Positions 8,382 through 61,805 of a stretch of DNA of 64,000 nucleotides are shown in pieces (position 1 is the first letter of the stretch; every line of letters begins with the position of its first letter). The stretch is taken from the IMG/VR virus record IMGVR_UViG_3300025400_000009; one strand, 5' to 3'. The stretch is from an uncultured virus (IMG/VR IMGVR_UViG_3300025400_000009) (Duplodnaviria; Heunggongvirae; Uroviricota; Caudoviricetes). The position numbers and the translations under genes were made by a program. The notes under the pieces are model-generated. The model was not told the origin of the DNA, made no database searches, and saw only the letters and a list, made by a program, of their open reading frames with translations.

Positions 8382-11300
8382 TTATAATGCTTCGATTGCT
8401 AGAATGAACGGTGTCATATTAGCAAATAATGATTGTACAAATGTTCTACCACTAATAACACCAGTGGCCTGACTAATAACCAAACTAGGACCGATACGGA
8501 AATCGCCGTTTTGGTCAGTCGAAGTAAAGAATACTTTACCACCGCCTAGTTGAACTGTTTCTCGTGCCTGTATAGGGTCTGCTTGTCCTACTTGAGGCAA
8601 TGCTCCGTAGTTAGTTCCAGCACCAACGTATTCAAATACATATCCAGAAGCAGATATGTAACTGCGTTGATAGAAGTTAACAGTTGCACCGTCCGGGAAT
8701 AGTGTAGGATCTGTTACTGCCTGTTCCATTTCTACAATGTGATATGTGCCTGGACGACTCCAGTAACTCAAACCAGCATAGACCATATTGTAGTTGCCGC
8801 CTGTTTCTAAATCATATATTAACTGTTGTAGGATTAATGCAACATCTCGTACACATTTTTGTGCTTGTCCGTGACTCATTGTTGCACCGTTGTATACACT
8901 AGCATAGAAATGGTTAACATATGCAACAACTTCAGCGGTCATGAAGCTCAAGTTGGCATTGATTAAATCAATAGCACTACCTGCTCCATTTGGTATTGTT
9001 CCTGTTTTTGTAATCAAACTGCTTGGGACAACACTCAATGCAGCATTTAAGTTAGTTGCAGTAACAATAGTTTCCAAATAACCAAAACGCAAATCAATAA
9101 ATGGCTGAGATGCGCTACCACCTGAAAAACTACTATTAGTTACCTGCGTTACAGTATTTTGATATGTAGGACTATAAACTGTATTGTTAATAACATAATC
9201 GGTTAATGTGTTTAGATAACGAATAGCAGCAGCATGTGCATCTATTTGGCTAACTGTGGGACCATTAAACAATGGATTTGTATTAGCCGACAAGATATTT
9301 GTTCCTGTAACATACGGTTGATTAGCAACATTACTAGTCAACACATCATAGTAAGCATTTCCTGAGAAATAAATCGTAAAGTAACTACTATTGTCAGGGA
9401 AACTTGCACCACTAGTCAATGCTTGACTTAGAGTAATACTGTTATAGTTAATGTCTACAACAGTTGTACCGGTAGCACAATAAAGAACACCATAGTTTGT
9501 ATTCACTACGGGAGGAGGATTTTGAGTTAAGAATCCAGGGGCTCCTGTATTTTGAATAGCAAGTACCGTACCAGTACTGCTAATATAATTTCCAAATTCA
9601 TCATGTTTATATGGGAATTTATCATAAGGGAAACCAAACTGGTCAATAACATAGACATTGTTTCCAATATGTACATCAGTAGTATCAACACCAGACAATG
9701 AAATTGTACCAGTTATTAAAGTACTGGTTGTAGGTTGTGCATTTAAGAACCCTTGGATAACAACACCATTAGCAGCTAGTTCCGGACTGTTATATGCACT
9801 GCTATATGAAGACGGTGGAACAACTTCCATAACCAAACTAATGTGTGGTCGATTGTCTATATCTGGAACAAAGACTTCAATATTACCTTTACTATCTGGG
9901 AAATACCCTTCTGGATAATATTGGTCTAAAGAGTTGGCACCGTATACTTCTTGTGGACTAAATGGATATGCTCTATTGATAGGATTATAAACGGTACCAC
10001 TGAATGCACGACTACCGTAACCCTTAGCAACCAAGCAAAGGTCACCAAAGTTAGCATTACTATTAACAATACTAGCAATACCACCGTTGTCAACTTGAAC
10101 ACCTACGCTGGCAAAAATTGTAAACACAGAAACTAACTGTGCATAGCCATTGTTAGTAACTTTAACACCAACGCCGCCTTGAGTTAACTGTGTAAACGCA
10201 TCATAAACAAAAGACTGGATAGGACTGCGATCACTAACTACTGAGCCATCAACTAAACTTCCGCCCATAGCACCTATCGAATCAACTTTACGACTATCCC
10301 ATGTGCTTGTGCTACCTGTTTGTGTTAAAGAAAGTGCATCAACTTCTGAGTTTTGTAATGGGAATACACGAGTATTGCCAAAATATAATGTAGCATTATT
10401 TCCTGCTCCGATGGTAGCAGTACTTAGACCAAGAATGTAGGTTCCAGTAGCCACAGGTGTTATCGATGTTATAGTAGGTGAGCTCTTTACATCTAAACCA
10501 TTAGTTCCTGTTAATGCAAATATACCTCCCCCTGCATAGACTGGTGGAGCAAAATCTGGACCTTGATTAATAATAGTACTAATAATGCCAAAGTTTCTAG
10601 CAATAGCCTGTTGTGGCATATAGTTACCACCATATTGGAAGAATGGATTGATAACTTGTTTAGCCACAGTACCAGTTATTACAGCAACAGGTTGATTATT
10701 GGCAATTTGTTGTGCAATAGAACTAATGTAACTGATTGCTTGAGTAGTTGTTGTAAGCTCGTTAGCAATATAGTTATAGCCTTGATTCCAATAACTTAAT
10801 CCTGCTTCGACACTGCGTTGATTTCCGCCTAATAATACATCTTGGCTAACAGCATCAACCATTAAACCAATGTCACGATAGCAATATCCTTGATCGTAGG
10901 CAAATGGGGTAATGCTGGCTGTTTTTGCAAGATAGGCAAGGACTTCTGCTATGATAAAACTACGGTTAGCATGTAATAGTGCCCATGCATTTTGTGCGTT
11001 AGCATCATATGATGGTGTCAAACTCTGCGGAGTTTTAGGTCCAGCAGCACTTGGTCCGTTAACAATAATTTTTGTGATCTCGGCAATCTTTTGTTTTAAC
11101 TGTTGTGCTTCTATTACAGTTGCCGGAGTATAGCCCACAACAACTTGTGGGACTACTGATTGATAAGGATTAGCAATGGTATTACCGGTTACAATATTTT
11201 GTACAATGTTTCCAATAAAGTTATAAGCTGAAATTGTTTCAGGAACTTCTGCCGGAAGCTGTGTATTGTTGTTGTAACCCCAATAGTATACACCGGATTT

Positions 11301-14300
11301 AATACTTTGAATATTTCCGCCATGTAATAAGTCAAAGGATACAGCATCAATCATATAGCCAACATCTCTAAAACATGTTGCAGTTGTATAAGATAATGTC
11401 GGATAGTTGATATACAAGTAACTCATCACACTATTTTGGAATGATGTTCGATGTGCTTGTATTGCATTATAGGCAGCAACATAGGTTGCAGTTGTGGTAG
11501 CAGTTGTTCCAAACTTAACTTGATCAGTAATACCGACTACACCATTAGAAATAATGTTTGTTATAGTACTAAACAATCCAGTAACTAATGTACCAATAGC
11601 AGGGCTACCAAATGTAGTAGCAGTATTAGCTACCAAAGAACTCAAGAAGTTAGTAGCAGAAACAATGGCAGAAACTTCTGATCCTACATTGCCTGTGTAA
11701 CTACCTTGGCTCCAATATTGTAAACCAGCAAATGTACTATCGCTTAGGCTTGCATACAACATGTCCATACCAATAGCATCGACAATCAATCCAGTGTCTC
11801 TACTGCATGTTGCTGTATTGAATACAAATGTCGAAGTAGAGTTATATGTGTAATCGATCCATGCTAGAGTTTCAGCAACTAAGAACGAACGGTTTGCTTC
11901 GATGATATTATAGGCATTTACAAAATCCTGAGAAGGATTTACAGTTAAACTAACTGGAGTAAACTCGTAGCCCGTAGGTCCATTGGTAATAATGTTTGTC
12001 AGAGTACTGACAATAGTAGTTACGGTATTGGCCACAGTAACATCAGCAAGTGGCAAACTTGTTACAGGCAGTACCTTAGTTTGATAAGGATTATATCCCG
12101 AAGGATTAGTAATCAATGTTCCGATTACAGAACCCAAGAAACTAAATGCTTGAGAAGTTGCAAATGTTTCTTGAGGGATAACTGTAGATCCATTTTGTGA
12201 ATAATAGCTCAATCCACTTTGTATTGCTTGACGATTTCCGCCGTATAACAAGTCAAACGATATTGAGTTAATAATGTAGCCAATATCTCGAACACATGTA
12301 GATGTATTAAAACTTGTTGATGGATAATTCAATCCAGCAGGACTTTCAATATAAGCAAGAACTTCGGCCTGCATATATGGAATATTAGCTTGTAGCAATG
12401 CATAGGTATTTTGTACACTACTTAATGTACTAGCTGTACCGCCATTAGAAACAATTAAATCTGTCCAACCTGAAACATTACCTCTTAGAATACTTAGAAT
12501 GGTTGCAAACTCAGTATTAACAGTTGCAACTTCTGCGGCAGTACCTGGCTGAATGTTAGTGATTTGAGTAGCATTACTATAACGAGTAATACCCAATAAC
12601 AAATCATCAGTAGCAGTTGTGTTTGTAATGACTTTGTTTGCTATAGTTTGTAGATATGCTATTGCCGCAGTGGTTGTGGTAATTTCATTAGGGATATTAC
12701 CTGTATAACTACCTTGATTGTAATATTGTAAACCGGCAAAAGTTGTTTGACTATATTTTGCTGTTGGGAATAATAAATCTGTAGCAATGCTATCAACTAT
12801 CAATCCGGCATCGCGTTGGCACTTAACCTTGTTATAAGGCAAATAACTAGGACCAGTAGGTTGTACTAGATTCCAGTTAATGTAGTTGAGTGTATTCTCT
12901 TGAATAAACTTTCTGTTGGCCTGTAACAATATTTCAGCACTTACATAGGCTGCATCTGGACCAGTACTTGTATAACTTGCAGGAGCAGCCTGAGGACCTT
13001 GTACAATAATATCTGTTACAATATTAAACAATGAACTAATAGCTGTACCAGCAACACCACCGTCTACTAAAACGGTATTGATAACCTGCGGAACATTTGG
13101 AATGTTAACTACAGGAGGAAGAACTGTACAAGTGTTATTAACGATAACATCTTGAATCAAATCATTTAAGTAGTTGATTGCAGCCACACATTGTGGAATA
13201 GAGTTAGCAATGTAACTAACTGGGCCGTTCCAATATGCATTTCCAGATTCTACTGCTTTCTGATTACCACCATAGGCAGCATCATAGGCAATATTTTCAA
13301 CTAAAATACCTGCGTCTCTATACGATAACTGTATTGTAGAAGTATCGTAGCTAACTGTTTGCATAGTTGCAGCAATAAATGCAATAACTTCTGCTTGAAT
13401 AAACGCACGATTTGCATGTAATAAAGTCCAAGCATTAACTGCGTTAGTATCGTTGGTTAGTGTTAAGTTTTGTGGAGTCTTAGGACCAGAAGCCACAGGA
13501 CCATTAACAATAATATCTGTGATAACATTGATATTATTTTGTAGAATGTTAGCTTCAGCGATAGTTCCTGGTGTTCCAGATATTACCTGTGTACTATTAC
13601 TATATTTTTTAGGAACAGATTGACCTGTTACAATGTAAGGAATGATACTTTGAATGAATGTATATGCCGCGGTTACTTGTGTTATTTCGCTAGGCACTTG
13701 TGTGGATGTTGTATAACCGTAATAGTAAACACCCGATTTCAAACTTTGTAGATTTCCGCCATGCAACATGTCAAAGCAAACAGAGTCAATAATGTAACCA
13801 ACATCTCTATAGCAAGTTGCTGTTGTAAAGTTTGAAGCAGAGTAGTTTAATCCAGAAGGAGAAACAACATAGTTGTAGACTTCTTGTTGTAAAGTAGTTC
13901 TAGCTGACTGAACAGCATTATAAGCAGCATTAATAAACACATTAGATGTAGACAAACTTTCTGGAACAACTTGATTTGTTATGTCAGTTGGAGTGCCAGC
14001 ACCTAATATAGTGGTAATAGTATTAAACAATCCGTTTGTAATCGATGTAGCAGTTGTTCCGCCAATACTAAAGTTAGTAATAGTATTTGCAACTAATGAT
14101 TTTAAGTAGTTAATAGCCGCAGTAGTTGTTGTTAACTCTCTTGCTATTTGTCCTGTATAGCCGCCTTGACTCCAGTATTGTAGGCCAGCAAATGTACTAT
14201 CGCTAGTGCTGTTGTACAACATGTCCATGCTGATTGCATCAACTATTAGTCCTACATCTCTACTACAAGTAGCAGAGTTATATGAGAATGTACCATTAGC

Positions 14301-16157
14301 AAAGGTGTTAACAAGATAAGATGCAACTTGTGCTTGTAAGAAAGGTTTATTAGCCAACATCAATGTACGAGCATTGAAAAATCCTGGATTTTGTTGACCA
14401 ACTGTGGCATTCATACCAATGGCTAGATTTTCAGCAGCGGTATAAACCCATACTGCGCCTGTATCTGTAGCAGTATATGCATCGTACAATCTAGGATTAG
14501 ATTTTGAACTCAGCAAGTTAGCGGTGGCCACTGTACCTGTAAAGTTAAGTGTAGATTGTAAACTTCCTGTATATTGTGTAGCAGCTGATCCAGCAGGGCC
14601 TGCATTAATAAAACCATTGATTGGCATATTTTCAATATAAACAGTGATGCTAGTTGTGTTAGCGGCCCATGTACCTGTACCCACGGCAACAGGAACTTGT
14701 ACAGTTTGGTCAGGAGTAAACAATGTACCGTCAACTAACCATGGTCCAGAAAGATTAGTACAGTTCTGAATATACGGCGAATGGAATAAATCGATTTGTT
14801 TTCCTGGAGGGAACGCTGTACAATATGCACCTCGGTTTGTTCCGTTTATATAACCAGTACCTGGTAACAATCCGCTACGCCCATTTAAGAACTGCATGAA
14901 TGCTAGATAGCAACCAGAGTTCATGTGGAACAAGTCTTGTGTCTTGTTGATAGGTTCGATACCTGTAGTACGAATATCTGAACCCATAACGCTAGTATAT
15001 GGTTTCAGTTGAATAGGGTTATCTTCTAAATAATGCCCCGGAGCAACACGAATTTGTGTGCCTGGTTGATAATAAGGACTTTTAACAGCACCACTAACTG
15101 TACGGCAAGCACGGCTTGGATCCATAGCACGACCGTCATTAGTGTCGTCACCGTCCATGGTTACATACAATACATTAGTAACAACCGGTGCAGTACCAAC
15201 AGGGTTATTACCGCGAACACGGATGTCACCAAATACATCCATAACGCCGCCACCGACGACATTACCGTTTTGATTCTTAGGAAGATTAATGCCGTTATTA
15301 GGACTTACAGAAATATTACCTGAGTTATTTCCTAAAAATTTTGTATAGATATTTTCTAAGTATGCTGTTGCCCAAGCAGTTCCAGTATCACCAATAGAAC
15401 TAGGTGCTACAGTTGCAGTAGAACCAGGCAATACATTGCCGCCGATATAAATGTCTTGACCAATACCAACACCACCGGTGACTGTAAATGCACCAGTAAT
15501 AGTGCTTACTGAGTTAATAGTAGCAGCAATATGAGCTTGATCTGTTGTTAATAAACCAGCAGCAGGGTTATAAGTTAAACCAAGGCTTGAAGGATAAATG
15601 CTGGCATTGTCGCCGTATAGTTGGGCTCCAGGTACAGTTAATCCTGTGGCGTCTGTAAAGGTAGGATAATAAATTTGATTATTATCAACAGGTTTAACAG
15701 TGATAAAAGAACTAGTAGAAGCTGTATTAGCATAGGCAACACGACCGTAAATATAGCCGCCGACTGCTAAATCTTGTTCGATGCCGACGCCGCCTTCAAA
15801 ATATGCCTGAGCTTGTTGGCGTTCTCCAGTACTGCTATATAATGTAGGAACTCCGTTTAAATCAAGAGTCCCAGTTACTGCACCTACCGATAATCCATAC
15901 CCGTCAATTTTTTTATTATTTACAGGGTTAATACCATTTGCATAAGGGGCGCCGCCTGGATTATCAATTGCATTACCTGGGTTATTATCGTTACTTTGAA
16001 TGTAAGCATTACTTGCTTGCAAAGTTGGAGTTAAATTATTACTTACTAAAAAGTTTCCAGTTGCCTGAACATAAGAGGTTTCTAATGTGATAGCGGTAGA
16101 AGTAATAGCGTTATTACTACTTGGAGCCACCATTCTTGAACCGATTATTTTTGCCAT
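8382..16157 (-). CDS. Very large virion protein (2591 aa): pectin-lyase-like beta-helix interrupted by tandem ~160-aa helical repeats
   Basis: LYVTMDGDDTNDG...IRVAPGHYLEDNP...SPYIQNCT start of beta-helix; resumes at DAFTQ..GGVG...NNGYAQLVSVFT; nine C-x-R-D repeats; C-terminal GGKVFFTSTDQNGDFRIG. Confidence 0.8.
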   Translation of the reverse strand: MAKIIGSRMVAPSSNNAITSTAITLETSYVQATGNFLVSNNLTPTLQASNAYIQSNDNNPGNAIDNPGGAPYANGINPVNNKKIDGYGLSVGAVTGTLDLNGVPTLYSSTGERQQAQAYFEGGVGIEQDLAVGGYIYGRVAYANTASTSSFITVKPVDNNQIYYPTFTDATGLTVPGAQLYGDNASIYPSSLGLTYNPAAGLLTTDQAHIAATINSVSTITGAFTVTGGVGIGQDIYIGGNVLPGSTATVAPSSIGDTGTAWATAYLENIYTKFLGNNSGNISVSPNNGINLPKNQNGNVVGGGVMDVFGDIRVRGNNPVGTAPVVTNVLYVTMDGDDTNDGRAMDPSRACRTVSGAVKSPYYQPGTQIRVAPGHYLEDNPIQLKPYTSVMGSDIRTTGIEPINKTQDLFHMNSGCYLAFMQFLNGRSGLLPGTGYINGTNRGAYCTAFPPGKQIDLFHSPYIQNCTNLSGPWLVDGTLFTPDQTVQVPVAVGTGTWAANTTSITVYIENMPINGFINAGPAGSAATQYTGSLQSTLNFTGTVATANLLSSKSNPRLYDAYTATDTGAVWVYTAAENLAIGMNATVGQQNPGFFNARTLMLANKPFLQAQVASYLVNTFANGTFSYNSATCSRDVGLIVDAISMDMLYNSTSDSTFAGLQYWSQGGYTGQIARELTTTTAAINYLKSLVANTITNFSIGGTTATSITNGLFNTITTILGAGTPTDITNQVVPESLSTSNVFINAAYNAVQSARTTLQQEVYNYVVSPSGLNYSASNFTTATCYRDVGYIIDSVCFDMLHGGNLQSLKSGVYYYGYTTSTQVPSEITQVTAAYTFIQSIIPYIVTGQSVPKKYSNSTQVISGTPGTIAEANILQNNINVITDIIVNGPVASGPKTPQNLTLTNDTNAVNAWTLLHANRAFIQAEVIAFIAATMQTVSYDTSTIQLSYRDAGILVENIAYDAAYGGNQKAVESGNAYWNGPVSYIANSIPQCVAAINYLNDLIQDVIVNNTCTVLPPVVNIPNVPQVINTVLVDGGVAGTAISSLFNIVTDIIVQGPQAAPASYTSTGPDAAYVSAEILLQANRKFIQENTLNYINWNLVQPTGPSYLPYNKVKCQRDAGLIVDSIATDLLFPTAKYSQTTFAGLQYYNQGSYTGNIPNEITTTTAAIAYLQTIANKVITNTTATDDLLLGITRYSNATQITNIQPGTAAEVATVNTEFATILSILRGNVSGWTDLIVSNGGTASTLSSVQNTYALLQANIPYMQAEVLAYIESPAGLNYPSTSFNTSTCVRDIGYIINSISFDLLYGGNRQAIQSGLSYYSQNGSTVIPQETFATSQAFSFLGSVIGTLITNPSGYNPYQTKVLPVTSLPLADVTVANTVTTIVSTLTNIITNGPTGYEFTPVSLTVNPSQDFVNAYNIIEANRSFLVAETLAWIDYTYNSTSTFVFNTATCSRDTGLIVDAIGMDMLYASLSDSTFAGLQYWSQGSYTGNVGSEVSAIVSATNFLSSLVANTATTFGSPAIGTLVTGLFSTITNIISNGVVGITDQVKFGTTATTTATYVAAYNAIQAHRTSFQNSVMSYLYINYPTLSYTTATCFRDVGYMIDAVSFDLLHGGNIQSIKSGVYYWGYNNNTQLPAEVPETISAYNFIGNIVQNIVTGNTIANPYQSVVPQVVVGYTPATVIEAQQLKQKIAEITKIIVNGPSAAGPKTPQSLTPSYDANAQNAWALLHANRSFIIAEVLAYLAKTASITPFAYDQGYCYRDIGLMVDAVSQDVLLGGNQRSVEAGLSYWNQGYNYIANELTTTTQAISYISSIAQQIANNQPVAVITGTVAKQVINPFFQYGGNYMPQQAIARNFGIISTIINQGPDFAPPVYAGGGIFALTGTNGLDVKSSPTITSITPVATGTYILGLSTATIGAGNNATLYFGNTRVFPLQNSEVDALSLTQTGSTSTWDSRKVDSIGAMGGSLVDGSVVSDRSPIQSFVYDAFTQLTQGGVGVKVTNNGYAQLVSVFTIFASVGVQVDNGGIASIVNSNANFGDLCLVAKGYGSRAFSGTVYNPINRAYPFSPQEVYGANSLDQYYPEGYFPDSKGNIEVFVPDIDNRPHISLVMEVVPPSSYSSAYNSPELAANGVVIQGFLNAQPTTSTLITGTISLSGVDTTDVHIGNNVYVIDQFGFPYDKFPYKHDEFGNYISSTGTVLAIQNTGAPGFLTQNPPPVVNTNYGVLYCATGTTVVDINYNSITLSQALTSGASFPDNSSYFTIYFSGNAYYDVLTSNVANQPYVTGTNILSANTNPLFNGPTVSQIDAHAAAIRYLNTLTDYVINNTVYSPTYQNTVTQVTNSSFSGGSASQPFIDLRFGYLETIVTATNLNAALSVVPSSLITKTGTIPNGAGSAIDLINANLSFMTAEVVAYVNHFYASVYNGATMSHGQAQKCVRDVALILQQLIYDLETGGNYNMVYAGLSYWSRPGTYHIVEMEQAVTDPTLFPDGATVNFYQRSYISASGYVFEYVGAGTNYGALPQVGQADPIQARETVQLGGGKVFFTSTDQNGDFRIGPSLVISQATGVISGRTFVQSLFANMTPFILAIEAL

Positions 16158-16802: not shown

Positions 16803-17732
16803 TTAGTAAGTTTGGATACCAACGCAAGCGCCGGCTTGAGTAGATACTGTACCACTAGCATTACCCCAACCTGCAACCCAACGCACTTCTGTTCCATTTG
16901 CAAATACAAAAGAACCATTTACAGTTTGACGAATAACACGAGCTTTACGGCTTGTTAACTTTGTAACAACATAAGTGCTACCATTAGCATCTTTAGCAAT
17001 AATGTTCATTTGACCTGCAACTAAAGAAGCTGCTGCCGCTGTAGAAGTTGTTAACTTGCAGATAGCACGACCTTGATCGTTTTCAACTAGATAACGATGG
17101 CTACCTTCTTGTTTTAGAATTGCCGCAGTTGTAGCTGATCCTCCTGGAATAAATGCTGTACAAGCAATATTACCTGTGTCATCTTCTTGAGCTGTTAGGC
17201 TAGCGGTAATAACTGCACCAGAACCGTTATCGCTAAATGTTAAGTTAGAAGAATTATTCCAAGTACCGTTGTTGTTTACTGTACTAGTAATGATGTTACC
17301 GTTAATAGCAGTAACATAACCGTTAATACCAGTTATTGCACCAGAAATTAACATACCAATGCTGATACCAGCTGTGGTTGATACAGTGAATGTGTTAGTA
17401 GCAGTTACACCAGAGTTAACTGTACTTGTGACTGTTGCTGGTTTAACAATAGTAATAGTAGCTGTACTGTAACCGGCGCCGACATTAGTAGCATTAATGC
17501 CTGTAATGCCACCTGCTGGGCTACCTGTTGGACTATTAATAGTCAATGCAAATGTTGCTTGTACTCCATCAGCAAGGCCTTCAGTCGGTGCTGAAACAGA
17601 TACAGTAGTACCTTGTGAATAGTGTGTACCGTTCGAAGTAAGTGCTACAGCAACACCTTTATATTTTACTGCTACGCTGGCATCGGCAGCGCCTTGTTTT
17701 ACAAAATATCTCTTTTTAATTGGACGTCCCAT
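16803..17732 (-). CDS. Virion protein downstream of major capsid, possibly head decoration (309 aa)
   Basis: Intact ORF with AAGGAG RBS; basic N-terminus MGRPIKKRYF, beta-rich body, ILKQEGSHRYLV motif; position after gp23. Function is inferred. Confidence 0.6.
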   Translation of the reverse strand: MGRPIKKRYFVKQGAADASVAVKYKGVAVALTSNGTHYSQGTTVSVSAPTEGLADGVQATFALTINSPTGSPAGGITGINATNVGAGYSTATITIVKPATVTSTVNSGVTATNTFTVSTTAGISIGMLISGAITGINGYVTAINGNIITSTVNNNGTWNNSSNLTFSDNGSGAVITASLTAQEDDTGNIACTAFIPGGSATTAAILKQEGSHRYLVENDQGRAICKLTTSTAAAASLVAGQMNIIAKDANGSTYVVTKLTSRKARVIRQTVNGSFVFANGTEVRWVAGWGNASGTVSTQAGACVGIQTY

Positions 17733-17876: not shown

Positions 17877-19055
17877 TTATTGGAAGCTAACTGTAGAGCT
17901 GTTGATAGCAACTTTGCTCAAGTAGTCAGCAGCATTGCCTAAGCTAGATGCTGTGTTGTTCAACTCGACATAGCCGTAGCGTGTCAAGAAGCCAACTACT
18001 GGTTCGAATGTTGCTGGATCTAGAACAACACCAGAGCTCATTAGAGGAATATAAGGGCAATAGAACGCAGCAGCATCTGCTTCGCTAGAACCTTTATAAC
18101 CAATCATAACTTGGTTGCTGTCAGCGCCTGTGTCGCTCAAGTAAGCGTCAACATAAATCTTCATAGCGCCATTCAATGTACCAACAAACTTGGTGTTTGT
18201 AGGAGCTTCGAAAGTGCCTTCTGTTGTACGAGCAAAAGCGCTTGTAGTAGCAGATTGAAGAATTGTCAATGCTTGGTTAGAAACAACAGCCCAGTTACCT
18301 GCGCCGCGACGTGTACGTTGGGCGATCAAGTTGCTTGCGCGGTTGATCATAATAGCTAGAGCAGCGTGTTCGTCACCAACGAAAGTTGCTGTACCGCTAA
18401 CCAAAGATTGGTCATATGTATAGTCAACTGTAGCCAAGCCACGTAGGCTAGCTAGGATTTCTTGGTCGATTTCAGCTGTGATTTCTTGTGCTAGAGCAGC
18501 CATGATTTCTGCTTCGATGTCAATACCTTGTTGGGCTTGTGCATCTTGAGCAGCTTCAAAAGTCCAGCGAGCGCTTAGTTTACGAGACTTAGCTTCAACT
18601 GGAGCTTTCAAGATTTGAATGCTCATGCGGTTACCTGGTGTACCTTCAAGTGCGCTTGTTGCGGCTGCACCTGGATAGGTAGCATTGTTGTTACCAGAAT
18701 AGGCTTGAGCGATTTTGAATGGGCTCAATGCTTCTTCACCAGCTACAACTTCGTTAGAGCTATCAGCATAACGAACACGTAGTGTGTGGATTTGACCAAC
18801 TGGACCAGTCATTGGTTGAACGCCGATGATTTCGTTGGCAATAACTGTAGGCATAACACGACGGATAACAGGTAGAATAACACGGTTAAGTGTTGCTACG
18901 TTACCAGCACTAGTTGCACCAGCAGTTGCGCTTTCAGCCAAATACTTACGGGTGTTTTCTAAGCAAACTTGCATAGAAGAACGACGAGTACCTGATAGGC
19001 CTTCAAGCAGAGCTTCTTTGGTCTCTGACCATCTTTCATTTAATAGTTGTGACAT
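17877..19055 (-). CDS. gp23: Major capsid protein, T4 gp23 family
   Basis: LPVIRRVMP..IANEIIGVQPMTGPVGQI, VEAKSRKLSARWTFEAAQD, EITAEIDQEI, AFYCPYIPL, DPATFEPVVGFLTRYG are gp23 family motifs. Confidence 0.97.
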   Translation of the reverse strand: MSQLLNERWSETKEALLEGLSGTRRSSMQVCLENTRKYLAESATAGATSAGNVATLNRVILPVIRRVMPTVIANEIIGVQPMTGPVGQIHTLRVRYADSSNEVVAGEEALSPFKIAQAYSGNNNATYPGAAATSALEGTPGNRMSIQILKAPVEAKSRKLSARWTFEAAQDAQAQQGIDIEAEIMAALAQEITAEIDQEILASLRGLATVDYTYDQSLVSGTATFVGDEHAALAIMINRASNLIAQRTRRGAGNWAVVSNQALTILQSATTSAFARTTEGTFEAPTNTKFVGTLNGAMKIYVDAYLSDTGADSNQVMIGYKGSSEADAAAFYCPYIPLMSSGVVLDPATFEPVVGFLTRYGYVELNNTASSLGNAADYLSKVAINSSTVSFQ

Positions 19056-22295: not shown

Positions 22296-22303
22296 TATTT
22301 ATA
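22296..22303 (-). promoter_or_regulatory. Late promoter TATAAATA overlapping the portal stop codon
   Basis: Exact consensus; contains the TAA of gp20. Confidence 0.65.
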
Positions 22304-26405: not shown

Positions 26406-26413
26406 TATAAATA
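26406..26413 (+). promoter_or_regulatory. Late promoter TATAAATA for gp26-like gene
   Basis: Exact consensus upstream of GTG 26465. Confidence 0.65.
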
Positions 26414-26464: not shown

Positions 26465-27340
26465 GTGCCTGAAAACACCACATTTAATATTCCTGAGAAT
26501 CCTTTGACCATGTTCATGCGTCAACCAAAAGTCTACATCAGACTACCTAGCAACGGAGAATATTGGCCACAAGGCAGTTTAGATCTACCCGATAACAGGC
26601 AAATCGCAGTTTATTCCATGACTGCTAAAGATGAAATCTTATTGAACATCCCCGATGCCTTAATGAATGGACAAGCAGTAGTAGACGTCATTCAAAACTG
26701 TATTCCCGCAGTTAAAAATGCATGGGCAGCACCTAGTCTAGATATCGATGCCATGTTGATTGCAATACGTATTGCTACCTATGGAGAAATGATGAAAACT
26801 CCTATTAAGTTTAATGATGATTTGGAAATGGATTATCAAATAGATTTAAGAACGGTGTTAGATTCATTGATGAACAATGTTTCCTGGACTACAGCGGTGC
26901 CCATTAATGACTCAATGACTGTGTTTGTTAAACCCTTGACCTATAAACAAATAACAAAAAGTTCAATTCAAGTGTTTGAAACACAAAAAATTATTCAGTT
27001 GGCCAACAATGATTCAGTCAGCGAGGACGATAAAGTAAAACTCTTTAAACAAAGTTTTAACAAACTCACTGATTCTACAGTAGACTCTATTGTTGATAGC
27101 ATTTCTCATATAGACACAATTCAAGGTAGTGTTAGTAACCCTCAATTTATTAAAGAGTTTATTAATAATGCCGATAAAGATGTTTTCAATAAGATTCAAA
27201 AACATCTAGAAGACATGAAAGACCAAAATTCTATCAAACCCATGAAGGTACCGGTAACTCCTGAAATGCAGGAACGCGGAGTCACGGGGGATACCGTCGA
27301 TATTCCTTTGGTATTTGATTCCTCGACTTTTTTCGCGTAA
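26465..27340 (+). CDS. gp26: Baseplate hub assembly/tail chaperone, T4 gp26-like
   Basis: RQPKVYIRLPS.G, MTAKDEILL, D.DAMLIAIRIATYGE motifs; ends ...STFFA; GGAG RBS before GTG. Confidence 0.75.
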   Translation: MPENTTFNIPENPLTMFMRQPKVYIRLPSNGEYWPQGSLDLPDNRQIAVYSMTAKDEILLNIPDALMNGQAVVDVIQNCIPAVKNAWAAPSLDIDAMLIAIRIATYGEMMKTPIKFNDDLEMDYQIDLRTVLDSLMNNVSWTTAVPINDSMTVFVKPLTYKQITKSSIQVFETQKIIQLANNDSVSEDDKVKLFKQSFNKLTDSTVDSIVDSISHIDTIQGSVSNPQFIKEFINNADKDVFNKIQKHLEDMKDQNSIKPMKVPVTPEMQERGVTGDTVDIPLVFDSSTFFA

Positions 27341-27345
27341 GGCTT

Positions 27346-27564
27346 TTGTATCTTGATATTCCTGAAGTCGAAAAACTCCTTAACGACCTAGACGGAAATA
27401 CAAAAGCCATTAAAGAAGAACTGTTAAGAATATGTTGGTTTATGAGGGGAGGGGTAGGATATAATGAAAGTTATATGCTTTCTCCCGAAGACAGAGAGAT
27501 TATCACTAAGATTATCGAAAAGAACTTAGAAACAACTAAAGAAAGCGGATTACCTTTCTTCTAA
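27346..27564 (+). CDS. gp51-like hub assembly protein; possibly the C-terminal part of a -1 frameshift fusion
   Basis: CWFMRGG..Y.E.Y.LSPEDREII pattern; only a TTG start with poor RBS spacing; frame is open from 27319, overlapping the gp26 end in the -1 frame. Confidence 0.65.
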   Translation: MYLDIPEVEKLLNDLDGNTKAIKEELLRICWFMRGGVGYNESYMLSPEDREIITKIIEKNLETTKESGLPFF

Positions 27565-27570
27565 TACTAG

Positions 27571-27590
27571 AAATGAGCTAAAGCTCATTT
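27571..27590. terminator. Perfect inverted repeat at the convergence of two transcription units
   Basis: AAATGAGC-TAAA-GCTCATTT immediately after the 27564 stop. Confidence 0.55.
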
Positions 27591-27639
27591 GTTATTTCGC
27601 TCACGCTCATAACTGATTGTATTTCTTTTAATCACGACG

Positions 27640-28033
27640 TGTTAAATTTCATGTAGATTGTTTCAGTCAGACGGAACCGTTTTGCAAGGTTCCGTCTCTT
27701 TGTCTTCATGTGAGTCATCACAGCCGAGACATTGGAAGTAGGTTTTAATTATTCACCGTATGCTAATGGGCTCTGACCTTTCCCAACCTACGTCGACATC
27801 GCAGAATTATCTGCTACCTTAAACTTCGTTCCTAGTGTTTAAGTTTTTATAGCCGGTGATTTCGTATGCTAACATTCATACTATAACAATGCGTCGGGCG
27901 TATGGTTCTACCCTCTGACTCACTTCCGATTTTTCAGGATACTGGAATTCCTCCAGGGGAGTGCATCATTATGTTACGTGTCCGGTTATTCCCCGGTTTT
28001 TCCACAGCGGTATTACAAACTGGCCCGCTAACC
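27640..28033 (-). ncRNA. Candidate large structured non-coding RNA (unidentified family)
   Basis: ORF-free gap with at least ten nested helices read by eye, including long-range 27710-17/27916-23 and 27724-34/27887-97; G-U pairs favour the minus strand. Boundaries approximate. Confidence 0.6.
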
Positions 28034-28315
28034 TTAGGTGCTAGATGATATATAACCTTTTGGAATCCAACAAACAAACATACTTTTTCCTTTTTTATTT
28101 TTGCAGGTATTACATACTACCTTACCTGCATGTGGTCCAGTCGGTTCGTTGATAATTTCCCAATTATGGGATTCGTGGATTCCTAGATGTTGCCTTAGTT
28201 TATTTCTTTGATCATGCCATGCTTTGTCAAATCCAGTTTTTGGATTAGTCCAGTATGTATCATTTAAAAATGCTGTATCACTTTTATTGGTTTTACTGTA
28301 ATCAAACTTTGTCAT
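28034..28315 (-). CDS. Small Cys/His protein, possible zinc finger (93 aa)
   Basis: GPHAGKVVCNTCK...FVCWIPK motif; stop codon abuts the structured region. Confidence 0.65.
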   Translation of the reverse strand: MTKFDYSKTNKSDTAFLNDTYWTNPKTGFDKAWHDQRNKLRQHLGIHESHNWEIINEPTGPHAGKVVCNTCKNKKGKSMFVCWIPKGYISSST

Positions 28316-28319
28316 GATC

Positions 28320-28742
28320 TTATTTTTTTAATATATGTGAGCCATGTACACGGACCGAGATTTGTCCATTATAGTAGTCTGTAGATTCAAGTACTTTGCG
28401 GTCGAATTGTTCACGGGCCTCAATGTAACTACATTCTGCTTTACTACGACAGTAGTATAATATCTCTCTGCTGAAATTTTCTTTGCCTAAATTAGCAACG
28501 TCTGCACTGAGTTCGTTGCTGGAGCCATAATATTCTTGCCAGTCGCTGTCTATTTTACTGCGAATTTTCTTTTTCTTTTTTGTGCCATTTTTTAGTTTAA
28601 CAGTTTTATAAGTTGTTTTACTAAACTTTGCTAACTTCTTGCCTATATATTTTCTACCAGTGATTAAATTTGTAATCAAGTAGACAAACCCGACACAGTC
28701 ATCGGGCAGGTCTTCCACGTTTTCTCCCTGGTACTTCCACAT
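28320..28742 (-). CDS. Stand-alone GIY-YIG family nuclease (140 aa)
   Basis: GFVYLITN..TGRKYIGKK, YYGSS, F.REIL, conserved Glu (YIEAREQ) and YYN motifs. Confidence 0.85.
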   Translation of the reverse strand: MWKYQGENVEDLPDDCVGFVYLITNLITGRKYIGKKLAKFSKTTYKTVKLKNGTKKKKKIRSKIDSDWQEYYGSSNELSADVANLGKENFSREILYYCRSKAECSYIEAREQFDRKVLESTDYYNGQISVRVHGSHILKK

Positions 28743-31791: not shown

Positions 31792-31820
31792 AGTATAGCG
31801 TGTACAATACTAAAGGTCAA
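31792..31820 (-). promoter_or_regulatory. Sigma70-type promoter for gp47
   Basis: TTGACC-17 nt-TATACT; -35 overlaps the gp55 stop. Confidence 0.75.
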
Positions 31821-32740
31821 GTAATAATGTCTTCGTTTTCTAGCTCTTCTTCGTCCGAGATATCTTCGCTCTTAGGCATACGCATATTTTTATATAGTTC
31901 TGCTTGGCGAGCAATTTCTTCGGCATACTCTTGGCTGTTTTGTCTTGTTAGACTTGGAGTCAATCCTGCTTCTTCCAACAAGTCATCGCGAATATTTTGA
32001 CTCTTCTTTTCAATATTTAGAATACGAGTGAATGAATTTGTTACTGCGGCAGTATAGTAGGCAAATGGATTCTCGGATTTTGATTCATCAAACTGTAGTC
32101 CAATCTGACTTAGTTGAAGAATAGCCTGTCCTTTCATTTCATCGACATAAGTATACCCACGCCAGTTGCTACGTTGGGCATAGCGTTCGCTGAGTTTGAT
32201 AAACATTTTGCCAAGATTTTCAGTAATGCGTCCGTGTTCTTTATTAAACTTACCAGTTTCGATAGGACCTTTCCAATGGCTTTTACCTACACACATTAGT
32301 TCGCCTTCGTCGTTAAACTTCCAATGTTGGAAAGGAGGAAAGTTTACTTTTTCATGACTGTCTGCACGATTTTTAACAGTCTTCTTGCGTCCCGGGGCAA
32401 GCGGGATATGATCGAATGTCATTATTCTGATTACAATATCTGTTTTTGCGATAGTTTTATAATCAGGAGTACATTCTGCTAGTTTGATTTTCTTATCGCC
32501 ATCTGCTCTTGCTTGAGCAAATGCTTGTAAACCTAGTCTTTTAGCACGAGCACGTTTGGCATCTGCTATAGTTCTAATGTTTACCTTGTCGAGACTTGTT
32601 AAAATGATATCGTGTTGTTGATATTCAGGTTGCAAAAAACTTGAAAATGAACATTTACTACGATGAATTTCTGCTAATAAGTCTCTGTTGTTTAAGTATT
32701 TTACCTTTCTGCCGGTCGGCGCGATAGTTGTTGTTGTCAT
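31817..32740 (-). CDS. gp55: Late transcription sigma factor, T4 gp55 family
   Basis: YLNNRDLLAEI, LGKMFIKL.ER...RSNWRGYTYVDEM, FDESKSENPFAYYT....NSF.RI...EKK; synteny 55-47-46. Confidence 0.88.
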   Translation of the reverse strand: MTTTTIAPTGRKVKYLNNRDLLAEIHRSKCSFSSFLQPEYQQHDIILTSLDKVNIRTIADAKRARAKRLGLQAFAQARADGDKKIKLAECTPDYKTIAKTDIVIRIMTFDHIPLAPGRKKTVKNRADSHEKVNFPPFQHWKFNDEGELMCVGKSHWKGPIETGKFNKEHGRITENLGKMFIKLSERYAQRSNWRGYTYVDEMKGQAILQLSQIGLQFDESKSENPFAYYTAAVTNSFTRILNIEKKSQNIRDDLLEEAGLTPSLTRQNSQEYAEEIARQAELYKNMRMPKSEDISDEEELENEDIIT

Positions 32741-40191: not shown

Positions 40192-40199
40192 TATAAATA
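40192..40199 (+). promoter_or_regulatory. Late promoter TATAAATA
   Basis: Exact consensus 18 nt upstream of gp6 ATG. Confidence 0.65.
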
Positions 40200-43513: not shown

Positions 43514-46500
43514 ATGTCAACATCAACAGTACATTCAGTTAACCTATTACCAACATATCTACAAACAAATAAAAATTCTAAATTTTTATCAAGTACTATT
43601 GACCAGTTGATTCAACCGGCACAACTTGAGCGATTGAACGCTTACATTGGTTCTACATCTACTCCAACATATCACATAGGCGATTCTTATGTTCAAGAAT
43701 CTACTGCATTAAGACAAGCATATCAACTAGACCCTGCGTTAGTAACTAACGATATTAACGGGGTTATTCAAAGTGTAGTTGCCCTTGACGATCTTGCCAA
43801 TGAGATAGCATTGGAAGGTGGCCTAACTAACAATTTTGATAGACTATTTAGAAGTCAAGTATATCCTTATTATCCTCAAATAGCAATAGATAAACTAGTA
43901 AACTATGAAAAATATTATTGGTTACCTGAGGGTCCGGAGCTAGTTAATATTGATCAAGCAGATCTTGATGTTGCAAATCAAGTCATTGGACAATCAGATG
44001 TTGTACTTACTGTAGGCAATAATAGTGTACAGTTATTAAATGGTATGATGGTTACTTTCAGCGGCGACGGTGTTAGTAATCAGTACAAATACAAAGAGTT
44101 TTTTGTAGAAGGAACAGGTACATCTATTGTATTGGTTCCCTATGACAGTTTAATCACTCCTGAAGTATCTGCTCAACAAAATCCTGATTTATTTGATAAG
44201 GCAGGGTTTGATATGTTGTCTTTTGATGACAACAGAAATATACCAGTTGATCCTCAATACATTACCATTAATCGTGCTAGTAAAGATCTAAATGCATGGT
44301 CTAGAGCCAATCGCTGGGTACATGAAGATATTATTATAGCCAGTACTGCTGCTAATAATGCAGAAGTTAAACTACCACCTTTGCAAAGAGCGTTAAGACC
44401 TATTATTGAATTTAATGCAGATATTAAACTTTTTAATCACGGTTCTGTTGCTTACAAATATGTTGATGTAGTTGACAAATATACTAAAAATGCGTTTTTA
44501 ACTATTTCTGGAACTACTATTCCGGGAACATCGAACACCAGTACTGTAGTTGTAGATGGTATACCTTTAGAGCATGGTTATCGAATCATTTTTACCAATG
44601 ACACAGATCCAACAGTACAAAATAATATCTATCAAGTTAACTTTGTAAACATCAACGGAACATATAAGTTGGTATTATTGCCAGCATCTGATAACATGCC
44701 TGAAGAAGGCGCATCTGTTATAGTTACACAAGGTACTGTATTTGGCGGAACTACATTATGGTATAATGGCACAACATGGGTATCTGCTCAACAAAAGACT
44801 GCTACTAATCAAGCACCACTATTTGATTTGTTTGACGAAAACGAAGTAAGTTATTCCGATACTCAATACTATCTAAGTAATTTTACAGGTAACAAAATAT
44901 TTGGATATAAAATTAATAACAGTAATCCTGTTGATTCTATATTAGGCCTACATGTTGATTATAGGAATATTTCTTCTATTGGAAGTTTCTTATTCACAAA
45001 CTATTTTGGAACTGATCAGATTACAGTGTCTTTATCTGGAACTACTGTTGATGTTGTTCCTACTAGTAAGACTTTCTTTAAAATAGGCAACAAATATCTA
45101 AATGTTTGGGATTCGCTACTATCCCCTCCGATTAACATTAATAGCACAGGCTATTATGATGTTCCTTTGAGTTTAACTAATAATCCGTTGAACAGTTATT
45201 TGACTGATTTTACATTAGCGGACTTTGATCAACAAGCTGTAACAAATACACGTTTAATTTCTAATGGAAATAACCCAATGGCGTTTGCTATGATGTTCAT
45301 TGGTAAAAAATCAAATAGTGTGATTGATGCTATTGAGAAGTCTTCTGATGCTTATAATCAGTTTAAGTTGGCATTGATTGCACAGGCTTCATCTATTGCC
45401 GATGTAACTGATCCTGTAAAAGTCCTTGATGAAATTTTAACTAAAATAAATCTAAGTAAAACTTCTTTAAGTCCTTATTACTTGTCTGACATGGTTGCTT
45501 ATGGTGTTGATAAAAAAACATTAACCTATACTGTAACTAATCCCAATGTTGTAACATACTCTATCAACTCAGAATTTAATCTAACTGCTAGTTCTAATAG
45601 AAGTGTACTGATTTATCTAAACGGTCGTCAGCTAACAGCAGGACAAGATTATACATTTGATCCTTATGATGCTGGTGTAACTTTTTCTATAGTATTATCT
45701 GCGGGCGATGTTATTACCATTAATGATTATAGAGATACCCGTGGTAGCTTTATACCTCCTACCCCTACTAAACTAGGATTGTATCCTAGCTTTGTTCCTA
45801 AAATCTATTCAGACAATACCTATGCTAGCGGCCCAGTAAATGTAATACAAGGGCATGATGGTAGCATTATGTTAGCCTACAATGATTATAGAGATGCAAT
45901 CATTTTAGAATATGAACTACGTGTTTTTAATAATCTTAAAGTAGCCTATAGACCTGAACTATTCGATGTTAACTCATCTAATCCTGGCGCATTTAGAGAT
46001 TCTCTAGGAACAAGTAACTATAGTTTAGACGAAGTTAATAAGATTATACAGCCTTCTTTTATCAAATGGGCAGGTACATATGGTATTGAATATATTACCA
46101 ACAACTCGTTTGATATTAACAATCCATTTACTTGGAACTATACTGGTTCTGTTTATAAAGGATTACAATATCCAAATGCATCTGCTGGTACAGGAATATC
46201 TGTTAGCGGATCTTGGAGAGCAGTATTTGAATATTTTTACGATACCGATAGACCTCACACTGCACCTTGGGAAATGTTAGGATTTGGTAAACAACCTAGC
46301 TGGTGGGATGCTGAATATGGTGTTGCTCCTTATACATCTGGTAATACAAAAATGTGGACAGATATACAAGCAGGTAACATCGCTCAGGGCCCTATTGCTG
46401 GTATTAACACTTTCTATGCTCGTCCGGGATTACTTGATATTCTTCCTGTAGATGAGTTTGGAAACTTATTATCACCGACTATTATTGGTTTAGTAGCACA

Positions 46501-60527: not shown

Positions 60528-61805
60528 TTAATCTTCTTTGTAGTAAGCAGTTTGACCAAATGGCGCTACGATAGTATCATTACCGTGGATGATGAACAGG
60601 CTTTCGCAGTAGTTCTCATCGCCCCAGCTACCGCATGGATAACCATCTGTAAACATAATGAAGCGTTTTGGCTCAATGCCTTCTTCCTTCATAAAGTTAT
60701 AGCAAGCATCAAAGTCAGTACCGCCACCACCTTTGGGTTCATAATCCGTGATCTCGTCGGCATTGTCGCCTGTAAACTTAACATAGTTATAAACTTCAGT
60801 GTCGAAGCAGAACAAGTCTAGTTTAAAGTCTTTGTATTCTTCCATAATGCCCTTAACTTCACCTAAGAAGTCTTGTGCCATTTTGTTGCTAATAGAACCA
60901 GACATATCGATTGCCACTGACACATCGATAGTTTCTTCGTTCATCATACCTGGCAACACGGCACCGCAATGTTGGCTCTTACGATTTGGACGTTGGAAAC
61001 TAAAGTTGCTTTTAATGATACTTTGGATGTTCATACGCAACATTTGACGCCAATCCATTTTGGGTTCAGTAAAGTCAGTAATGTAACGTTGAACGCCGGC
61101 AGGAATACGACCGGCCCCGGCTGCTTGAGCTGCCGCTACCATGGCTTCTTTGATTTCGTCCTTGATCTTTTTCTTTTCTTCTTCAGTTAGTTTAGGACGA
61201 CCTTTGCCCTTGCCCTCGCCGTCAACTTCTTTACCATCGCCGCCGTCACTTTCTTCATCGCCATCACCGTCCAAATGTTCGTCTAACAACTCACCGATTT
61301 CTTCCCAAGAAATCTTTTCAGCATTTTCGTACAAGTGATCATAGATCTGTTCGTAACTCCAGCCACGATACTTATTATCTTGGAAGATTTTAATATCTTT
61401 TGGAACTTCTCCAATGCGTTCGTCTTTTAAGATTTGATTAACAGCATAGTCGGCGGCAATGTTTGACAACTGACCATCACGATTATCGCGGCGTCCCAAA
61501 TGGTCAAACACATTATGTAGTACTTCGTGTGCAAAACCAAATTCACATTCTTTTGGAGTTAATTTATTAACAAAATCGTTACTGTAATAGAAGTTCCGTC
61601 CATCTGTAGCCAAAGTACTACACCAGTCACTGGCATCGATTAGTTTCATACGAGTGGCCATGTTGCCAAAGAATGGGTGACGTAACAACAAACCAATACG
61701 AGCGGTTACAAGTTTTTCAACAATCTTGTTTTTTTCCGATTCAGAAAATACTTTACGTTCTGCTTTTGCTAGTTTTTTATTTGCTGTAGAAGTTTGAGTA
61801 GACAT
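60528..61805 (-). CDS. HExxH metallopeptidase-like + vWA domain protein (DUF2201-like)
   Basis: T.ATDG, AHEVLH, NIAADYAVN, acidic linker, MIDAS DMSGS, GGGGTDF, FTDG. Confidence 0.88.
   Translation of the reverse strand: MSTQTSTANKKLAKAERKVFSESEKNKIVEKLVTARIGLLLRHPFFGNMATRMKLIDASDWCSTLATDGRNFYYSNDFVNKLTPKECEFGFAHEVLHNVFDHLGRRDNRDGQLSNIAADYAVNQILKDERIGEVPKDIKIFQDNKYRGWSYEQIYDHLYENAEKISWEEIGELLDEHLDGDGDEESDGGDGKEVDGEGKGKGRPKLTEEEKKKIKDEIKEAMVAAAQAAGAGRIPAGVQRYITDFTEPKMDWRQMLRMNIQSIIKSNFSFQRPNRKSQHCGAVLPGMMNEETIDVSVAIDMSGSISNKMAQDFLGEVKGIMEEYKDFKLDLFCFDTEVYNYVKFTGDNADEITDYEPKGGGGTDFDACYNFMKEEGIEPKRFIMFTDGYPCGSWGDENYCESLFIIHGNDTIVAPFGQTAYYKED

Follow-up and report, generated by a model that had tools for sequence, protein, structure and literature searches.

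The 64,000-nucleotide (nt) stretch of uncultured virus DNA analysed here (IMG/VR record IMGVR_UViG_3300025400_000009, hereafter the window) is part of a T4-like myovirus, as shown by PHROG matches to a major head protein, portal, late sigma factor, and baseplate wedge and hub proteins, to which Pfam adds a gp51-like baseplate protein, SbcC-like and SbcD-like proteins, and a SegE-type GIY-YIG domain. Its largest non-coding gap lies between convergent gene sets and encodes, on the minus strand, a conserved and structured non-coding RNA of ~475 nt. The gp51-like gene and orf72 form the left flank of the gap, and the right flank on the minus strand is made up of the SbcD-like gene, the SbcC-like gene, orf106, the GIY-YIG gene, and orf93. 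Listing of open reading frames (ORFs) gives none longer than 48 amino acids (aa) in 27565-28033, and ARAGORN finds no tRNA or tmRNA gene (0 in the window). An initial annotation had flagged 27640-28033 as an unmatched large RNA or ribozyme, and this interval proves to be the core of the whole element. The element and its neighbours are as follows.

26465-27340, plus strand: gp51-like gene, left flank of the gap
27346-27564, plus strand: orf72, left flank of the gap
27568-28044, minus strand: whole element, ~475 nt, bounded by the hairpin that holds the orf93 stop codon and by the terminator hairpin, conserved in 30 distinct copies; both ends predicted from the sequence
28034-28315, minus strand: orf93, upstream neighbour of the element, confined to the window's subgroup
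28320-28742, minus strand: GIY-YIG protein of 140 aa with the SegE-type domain only (Pfam PF19835, 6.6e-34)

Eighty related viral loci were gathered through the gp51-like protein. By blastn the whole gap was found in only seven of them, the remainder sharing only its first 45 nt, which hold the terminator hairpin, and a 17-nt pattern from the gap led to 49 viral contigs that are all homologous over most of the element. Once duplicates and fragments were dropped, 30 distinct full-length copies remained and were aligned with MAFFT (alignment A2 for the plus strand, A3 for the minus strand). These split into the window's subgroup of 10 sequences, with L093 and L095 as outliers, and a second subgroup of 18. 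In every locus reaching far enough the element directly follows the 3' end of the GIY-YIG gene, or of orf93 where that is present, in a single orientation. The RNA is 100% identical in four further contigs, and the element keeps 83-89% nucleotide identity across phages whose gp51-like proteins are 54-64% identical.

Helices were defined from alignment columns that stay Watson-Crick while varying, and wobble pairs were then counted. On the minus strand 96.7% of the 1617 cells of 54 pairs in 10 helices are standard pairs, compared with 84.7% when the identical pairs are read on the plus strand, and both sides have changed in 19 of the 54 pairs in the minus reading (20 in the plus reading). The initial annotation had proposed gathering related gaps to look for covariation. 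The covariation score is 0.262 on the minus strand (shuffled mean 0.128) and 0.178 on the plus strand (shuffled mean 0.066), with 0 of 500 shuffles reaching the score on either; the best slid controls were 43.2% paired with a score of 0.060 on the minus strand and 37.9% paired with a score of 0.054 on the plus strand. The suggestion that G-U pairs favour the minus strand was borne out by a separate count over S0, P1, P2, P5, P6, P7, P8, P10, P11, P12, and PK (listed below), which gave 242 G.U cells on the minus strand against 23 A.C cells, the latter being G.U on the plus strand. P5 is the clearest single case, falling from 95.6% paired on the minus strand to 65.9% on the plus strand because its conserved tandem U.G/G.U turns into two mismatches. 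RNAalifold energies are likewise lower on the minus strand in both subgroups (-167.6 versus -162.7 and -150.6 versus -136.4), and the single-sequence fold of 27565-28033 beats dinucleotide shuffles on both strands. The fold comprises at least twelve helices, including the long-range P5 with its tandem G.U and a pseudoknot between P7 and P10. Its parts are given here in the 5' to 3' order of the RNA.

28029-32/28040-43, minus strand: S0 hairpin, 94.2% paired, one pair with double changes
28007-10/28025-28, minus strand: P1 hairpin, GCGG/CCGC, 100% paired, two pairs with a double change (one sequence)
27982-85/27993-96, minus strand: P2 hairpin, CCGG/CCGG, outer two pairs 100% paired (GC:17 CG:12 and CG:26 UA:4)
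27942-46/27952-56, minus strand: P3a hairpin, window's subgroup only, six covarying variants
27883-91/27964-72, minus strand: P5, long-range helix of 9 base pairs (bp), 95.6% paired, four pairs with double changes
27864-68/27877-81, minus strand: P6 hairpin, GUAUG/CAUAC, with conserved loop AAUGUUAG, 99.3% paired, four of five pairs with double changes
27753-58/27854-59, minus strand: P7, long-range helix crossing P10 to form a pseudoknot
27818-24/27837-43, minus strand: P8 hairpin, conserved loop with AGGAACGAAG, 90.4% paired, four pairs with double changes
27801-05/27810-14, minus strand: P9 hairpin of variable length, 5 bp here and 3 bp or ~20 bp in relatives (alignment)
27738-43/27786-91, minus strand: P10, 98.3% paired, one pair being GC:19 GU:11 and a second having a double change
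27768-70/27782-84, minus strand: P11, inside P10, 100% paired
27704-27716, minus strand: box R1, RNA sense GACUCACAUGAAG, 7-nt core the same as that of R2
27669-78/27688-97, minus strand: P12, 10-bp hairpin between both boxes, 99.3% paired
27775-78 with 27665-68, minus strand: PK, candidate pseudoknot of the P11 loop with a segment just 3' of P12, 92.5% paired
27647-27659, minus strand: box R2, RNA sense AAUCUACAUGAAA, 7-nt core the same as that of R1
27633-27641, minus strand: P13 mini-hairpin, CAC GUC GUG here, with a UUC loop in nearly all relatives
27596-27609, minus strand: repeat UGAGCG UGAGCG AA; the GAGCG repeat is also present in bacterial copies
27571-27590, minus strand: terminator-like hairpin from a terminator scan (called on the plus strand), kept in relatives of both classes described below

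Several of these helices carry further marks of conservation. The S0 loop, ACCUAAG, contains the TAA stop codon of orf93 (28034-28036), and in the second subgroup the GIY-YIG ORF stops at the same TAA within S0; the ORF preceding the RNA, be it orf93 or the slightly longer GIY-YIG ORF of the second subgroup (e.g., L113 and L081), ends in Ser-Asn or Ser-Thr and a stop in this hairpin, and thus reads into the RNA element. The loop of P1 is conserved, 14 nt long, and begins GCCAG. P3a occurs as CTGGA/TCCAG, GTCAG/CTGAC, GTGGG/CCCAC, CTAGG/CCTAG, GTGAG/CTCAC, and GTCAG/CCGAC, of which five are fully Watson-Crick and one has an A.C, and its position in the second subgroup is taken by another hairpin that also covaries. 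P5, which encloses P3a and a subgroup-specific insert, has its tandem wobble as UG in 30/30 copies and GU in 29/30. The main variants of the P7 arms, with Watson-Crick cores of five to six pairs, are TCACCG/CGGTGA (5 sequences), TACCGT/ACGGTT (5), and TACACA/TGTGTT (12); P7 was left out of the formal pair count because MAFFT misaligns one of its arms. One pair of P12 (UG:20 CG:9) becomes a mismatch when read on the plus strand. PK is unproven as it is almost invariant, and the stems of P13 diverge widely in sequence among copies with pairing preserved, as judged from the alignment without a formal count. Downstream of the boxes, both phage classes keep a UGAGCG-UGAGCGAA repeat behind the RNA (also at ~5690-5730 in L004) and next to it a hairpin that has a third copy (AUGAGC) as its 5' arm; the same repeat-plus-hairpin is conserved in GC-richer form in the bacterial loci L250-L252.

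The fold differs in part from that first drawn from the single sequence. All 11 arm pairs of the initial annotation are complementary, nine of them perfectly; 28005-10/28025-30 pairs at 5/6 positions on the plus strand and 6/6 on the minus strand, and 27724-34/27887-97 at 9/11 and 10/11, respectively. The 30-copy comparison backs eight of the 11, namely those corresponding to P1, P2, P3a (in the window's subgroup only), P6, P8, P9, P10, and P12. Two others, 27724-34/27887-97 and 27847-52/27881-86, were rejected, being absent from the second subgroup and clashing with P5 and P6, and 27710-17/27916-23 is present in the window's subgroup and absent elsewhere, so the multi-branch topology built on these enclosing arms is partly wrong and is not the conserved fold. 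Helices beyond the original list are P5, P7, P11, S0, the mini-hairpin P13, and the possible loop-to-tail pairing PK. The region had also been described as more GC-rich than other intergenic DNA, a claim that is weak: its GC fraction, 0.415-0.43, was set against neighbouring coding DNA only and is not clearly above the 0.31-0.445 seen there.

A second RNA occupies the same genomic slot in other phages. In 43 further distinct relatives the slot holds ~400 nt with no long open frame and without blastn similarity to the window's class; we refer to the window-type RNA as class 1 and to slot sequences starting with the Polynucleobacter-1 motif as class 2. The first 141 nt of class 2, adjoining the GIY-YIG gene on its strand, match Rfam Polynucleobacter-1 (RF01718) at 75-123 bits in 24/24 loci tested, the gathering score being 37 bits. 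The conserved block extends 260-340 nt past the end of the Rfam model with conserved hairpins of its own (L004, L013, L015, L024, L037, L064, and 18 more), and the Rfam motif therefore looks like the 5' domain, or first third, of a larger RNA: the conserved non-coding block measures ~400-480 nt in both classes, compared to 141 nt for the Rfam family. Weinberg et al. 2010 (PMC2864571) table Polynucleobacter-1, for which they give 16 representatives from Burkholderiales and from fresh water or estuary, as a likely RNA with a likely cis-regulatory role.

The two classes share their position and, by inspection, a 3' layout. The window RNA lies in the same slot and on the same strand as that which, in the sister phages, places Polynucleobacter-1 right after the GIY-YIG stop codon; by eye, its first hairpin is preceded by GG(C/U)UAGCG and has a loop starting G(G)CCA, as in Polynucleobacter-1; and both are of freshwater origin with an uncharacterised function. 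The 3' module runs in a common order, ACUC plus a 7-mer (R1), a stable hairpin, GU(G/C)UGAC, AUCU plus the same 7-mer (R2), a UUC-loop mini-hairpin, the GAGCG-GAGCGAA repeat, and a terminator-like hairpin, all of its parts being visible by inspection in class 2 and four bacterial copies as well as in the window. In contrast, the middle 300 nt have no detectable similarity between the classes. RF01718 is unmatched in the window at the gathering score and at E<=10 on either 801 or 191 bases, and matched in 0/22 of the other class-1 loci. A model of the class-2 5' part built from 35 copies gave no match at E<=10 in 139 kb of class-1 loci and reached 1.2 bits (E=5) at the expected place in the window, so that the P1/P2 resemblance is one seen by eye only. 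A sequence-only model of the 3' module gave weak matches to L099 (E=0.015 in 139 kb) and to the window at 27640-27669 on the minus strand (E=0.006 in 541 nt, beside a plus-strand match at E=0.016), and nhmmer with the 3' module was also weak (best E 0.038), with 17 of the 23 reported matches, from 17 of 35 sequences, falling at one place. A whole-length MAFFT alignment of both classes was unusable at 1262 columns, an apparent single linkage between them was due only to the shared distal part, and the 120 loci retrieved from the genome collection with a 15-nt Polynucleobacter-1 pattern were all chance, with none matching the class-2 profile. The window RNA is thus a distinct class in the Polynucleobacter-1 slot with, by inspection, a common 3' architecture, and we do not file it under RF01718 since the statistical support for relatedness is weak. 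The initial annotation was right in seeing a large structured phage RNA without an Rfam match; it is not without relatives, as it shares its slot and, by inspection, its 3' layout with Polynucleobacter-1.

Class 2 is also found in bacteria. Among 151 genomes of one order, reached via a locus that came up by chance and whose title names a Thiobacillus sp. metagenome-assembled genome, RF01718 occurs above the cut-off in three and below it in a fourth. The bacterial copies are divergent from a DUF6641 gene, with no same-strand gene directly upstream and no GIY-YIG gene nearby. Behind them come the boxes seen in the phages, the GAGCG repeat, and a hairpin ending in a U-rich tail; the genes beyond are unrelated. 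Two lie in islands: L254 (genome G051) carries a phage-type integrase and ZorB/C/D-like genes (MotB/OmpA, EH_Signature, and SNF2-Mrr), a domain set that we take to be a Zorya system, and L255 (genome G093) carries SNF2, DNA methylase, and ResIII genes, the RNA being located beside the divergent DUF6641 gene in both. In this setting the RNA is framed as an independent gene carried by mobile DNA. BLAST over 401 genomes from the same order did not find the window RNA in those searched.

The most unusual feature of the element is the concerted behaviour of R1 and R2. These are direct, non-complementary 13-nt repeats, spaced 47-57 nt apart on either side of a hairpin. Their 7-nt cores agree exactly in 29/30 class-1 copies (4 haplotypes), 42/42 class-2 copies (6 haplotypes; L024 is outside the pattern and matches by eye), and 4/4 bacterial copies (3 haplotypes), with at least 13 haplotypes overall. 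An ordinary helix does not explain this pattern, which is most simply read as the mark of a single partner recognising, and co-evolving with, both boxes. Other accounts were tried and set aside. Pairing of R2 with the 5' leader in class 2 is good in a few copies and not general, and pairing of class-1 R2 with GUAGGUU or CACGUA is not kept. Ribosomal bypass, suggested by GGA-UAA at both boxes ~50 nt apart in many class-2 copies, was rejected because no ORF reads into R1.

Known families do not account for the element. The Rfam 15 scan of the window at gathering scores returned only freshwater-2, outside the gap, and at E<=10 on 801 bases only two chance-level matches were obtained, both outside the core. 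The initial annotation had found no hallmarks of tRNA, tmRNA, RNase P, or introns and had named GOLLD, ROOL, HEARO, OLE, and introns as models to scan; the Rfam and ARAGORN scans confirm the former, with no match in the gap to GOLLD, ROOL, HEARO, OLE, group I or II introns, RNase P, tmRNA, or tRNA models. The freshwater-2 RNA itself (RF02980; 17730-17811, minus strand, 62.3 bits against a gathering score of 49.9) is flanked by the gene for the major head protein (17877-19055) and by the minus-strand ORF that comes next (16803-17732). Nothing pointing to a ribozyme was found. A group I intron carrying the GIY-YIG ORF was discarded, as the start of that ORF overlaps the preceding ORF, leaving no room for a 5' intron half, and no minus-strand ORF follows the element in the window. 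A blastn search of the phage GenBank collection gave no match.

GOLLD (RF01998) and ROOL (RF03087) resemble the window RNA in being pseudoknotted, multi-helix RNAs of several hundred nt on phages or mobile DNA that first came from lake metagenomes. The window RNA differs in its smaller size (~475 nt), in matching neither model, and in having no adjacent tRNA genes (0 in the window). Type III antitoxin RNAs such as ToxI offer another comparison, and phages carry antitoxin look-alikes; as in ToxI, the window RNA has direct repeats that are identical to each other and differ between lineages (here spaced 47-57 nt), and a terminator and then a gene follow in most of its relatives. Unlike ToxI, only the 13-nt boxes repeat rather than whole units, a large extra structured domain is present, and no conserved toxin-like gene follows, the downstream proteins being unrelated between bacteria and phages and absent from the window. 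A type III toxin-antitoxin RNA was therefore rejected, the element lacking both tandem whole-unit repeats and a conserved endoribonuclease toxin gene. Class 1 is a new RNA, absent from Rfam, of a known but uncharacterised kind. RNAs of the ROOL/GOLLD type are the subject of a cryo-electron microscopy preprint (10.1101/2024.12.08.627333), and viral structured RNAs were surveyed in 2023, the motifs reported being 29-151 nt long (PMC10690425). Four motif strings were not found in the searchable supplements of this survey, three supplement files lying outside that search, and parts of the RNA may already be listed in the supplements.

Among the neighbouring genes, GIY-YIG was found in 70 of the 80 related loci at 73-100% identity, and hence is a conserved gene of the whole phage group and no sporadic insertion; the 10 loci without it, not inspected singly, appear to be truncated. 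The idea that its product is a homologue of T4 endonuclease II (DenA) was dropped, a PDB sequence search giving no match at E<=0.01. Pfam and PHROG searches with orf93 gave no family match. From the RNA to the right (orf93, GIY-YIG, orf106, and SbcC-like), L006 matches the window at 98-100% identity, and leftwards its gp51-like and orf72 proteins are 65% and 60% identical, a drop that places a recombination junction at the distal end of the RNA. Elsewhere in the window, a 425-aa protein (60528-61805, minus strand) matches a PHROG annotated as HNH endonuclease (2.1e-109) and may be a second homing-type nuclease, and there are two giant ORFs, one of 2591 aa (8382-16157, minus strand) with tail-fibre-like PHROG matches and one of 4085 aa (43514-55771, plus strand). 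Exact TATAAATA sites occur at 1384-1391 and 22296-22303 on the minus strand and 26406-26413 and 40192-40199 on the plus strand, compared to 9.5 expected from shuffles. All four are just upstream of structural (late) genes and oriented with them, which suggests a T4-type late promoter working with the encoded gp55-like sigma factor (31817-32740) and avoided elsewhere.

With moderate confidence we favour a stable RNA product in its own right rather than a cis-regulator, since most relatives have a downstream gene that is missing from the window. On this reading the RNA would start at the preceding stop codon, which makes it most probably the tail of the gp47/gp46/GIY-YIG/orf93 transcript; it would end at the hairpin at 27571-27590 and act as a product, with no switching of a neighbouring gene. 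Class 1 would be one form of an RNA that fills the slot throughout a group of T4-like freshwater phages, and class 2 the form that has the Polynucleobacter-1 motif as its first third, with R1 and R2 around P12 serving as recognition or processing sites for one partner, protein or nucleic acid, that differs between lineages. The comparison shows the conservation, fold, strand, position, and concerted boxes; that the element is transcribed, where the RNA ends, that it acts in trans, and that its boxes have a partner are all matters that we infer. Several points weigh against this reading. No public RNA run was listed, and no complement to the boxes was found at a consistent place within ~4 kb. 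The shuffle control overstates significance, as the structure was derived from the test sequences and these form two tight subgroups, and the pair counts alone would also suit single-stranded DNA that tolerates G.T. Folded as a single sequence, the stretch scores better on the plus strand (z of -4.39, versus -2.56 on the minus strand), on which the candidate helix 27650-55/27975-80 also reads better, with U.G in 28/30 copies (C.A on the minus strand), as does the candidate 27710-17/27916-23; both helices are unproven. In 58 of 71 loci a homologous same-strand gene begins soon past the terminator, at a distance of ~20-60 nt in most relatives, and Polynucleobacter-1 was itself scored as probably cis-regulatory by its discoverers ("cis-reg: y" in the table of PMC2864571). 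These last two points would fit a long cis-acting leader or attenuator for the downstream minus-strand gene, which the window would have lost while keeping the leader, as would the same-strand ORF ~40 nt past the terminator of the bacterial copies and the terminator between RNA and gene, an attenuator layout. We consider such a leader possible but unlikely, for the RNA is intact in the window and in L006, where no downstream gene is present, and the bacterial downstream genes show no relation to those of the phages or to one another; the UGAGCG copies match the 5' and not the 3' arm of the terminator, so there is no obvious anti-terminator, and 450-500 nt is long for a leader. The phage downstream family consists of low-complexity, A/G/P/Q/T-rich proteins of 168-760 aa (e.g., on the minus strand, L004 5072-5656, L042 5064-5630, and L052 1796-2719) whose N-termini are conserved (M-K/R-I-x-E/D-I/L) and whose C-termini often bear an FLG motif, and its clustering may be partly composition-driven. 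A 3' untranslated element controlling the stability of the GIY-YIG/orf93 messenger or the level of the nuclease, by exonuclease block or nuclease binding, seems more doubtful still. The class-2 bacterial homologues have no GIY-YIG gene nearby, a plain hairpin would be enough for stability, and RNA class does not track GIY-YIG relatedness, the window's protein being 73-91% identical to those of class-2 phages and 53-59% identical to full-length matches in the other class-1 subgroup; in its favour are the constant start of the element at that gene's stop codon, held within a conserved hairpin loop, and the co-occurrence of RNA and GIY-YIG gene in all loci covering both.

The remaining explanations dispense with a minus-strand RNA. 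A role as DNA, whether replication origin, recombination or packaging signal, or operator sites formed by the boxes, could draw on the recombination junction seen with L006 and on the concerted direct repeats, which are typical of paired protein-binding sites. The initial annotation had kept a replication or packaging signal as its alternative, and we regard a DNA role as quite improbable, because the wobbles are strongly one-stranded (242 versus 23), where a DNA duplex or cruciform predicts symmetry, and because the homologues on bacterial chromosomes are framed like small, independent genes; the P5 tandem G.U, kept in 29-30 of 30 copies, argues the same way. An RNA made from the plus strand, convergent with the GIY-YIG gene, is slightly less plausible again: pairing drops from 96.7% to 84.7% (P5 to 65.9%), and Rfam reads the sister class on the minus strand, even though the better single-sequence fold, the two candidate helices with U.G on the plus strand, and a terminator scan match just upstream on that strand would suit it. 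Some copies also have a TATAAAT-like motif just upstream on the plus strand, which is not conserved across copies, and the T4-type late promoter motif, though used by the phage, is likewise not kept ahead of the element in the copies. That the structure arose by chance, in leftover spacer or a decaying pseudogene, can be given hardly any credence and is refuted by the homologous contigs and the covariation. AT-rich intergenic DNA does yield many short inverted repeats, and three of the helices first listed are not conserved; against this stand the 83-89% nucleotide identity of the element where the gp51-like protein shows 54-64%, the compensatory changes in 19 pairs, and the absence of any open frame longer than 52 codons.

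Compatible with an RNA product, and offered as a speculation we think rather improbable, is that mobile or defence islands of freshwater Burkholderiales and the T4-like phages that probably infect these hosts share one RNA family of 450-500 nt. The two co-evolving boxes would then be lineage-specific sites at which a partner in the conflict between phage and host recognises or cleaves the RNA, and the phage copies, the class-1 form without a downstream gene among them, would be decoys or mimics of the RNA made by the host element.

Large, intricate RNAs of bacteria and phages are rare, and each earlier one has led to new biology. The present analysis adds a well-supported class that Rfam lacks, ~475 nt long and represented by at least 30 distinct natural variants. 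It also shows that Polynucleobacter-1, a motif of 141 nt left uncharacterised since 2010, opens a longer conserved non-coding block (400-480 nt) that is found both in T4-like phages and in bacterial islands with presumed Zorya and restriction-type defence genes. Should the shared-family reading be true, the Polynucleobacter-1 motif would be only the 5' third of the true RNA, and should the decoy or mimic reading be true, these elements would represent RNA-based counter-defence of a new kind in the conflict between phage and host. The two direct boxes, identical to each other and variable between lineages, provide an experimental handle on this RNA.

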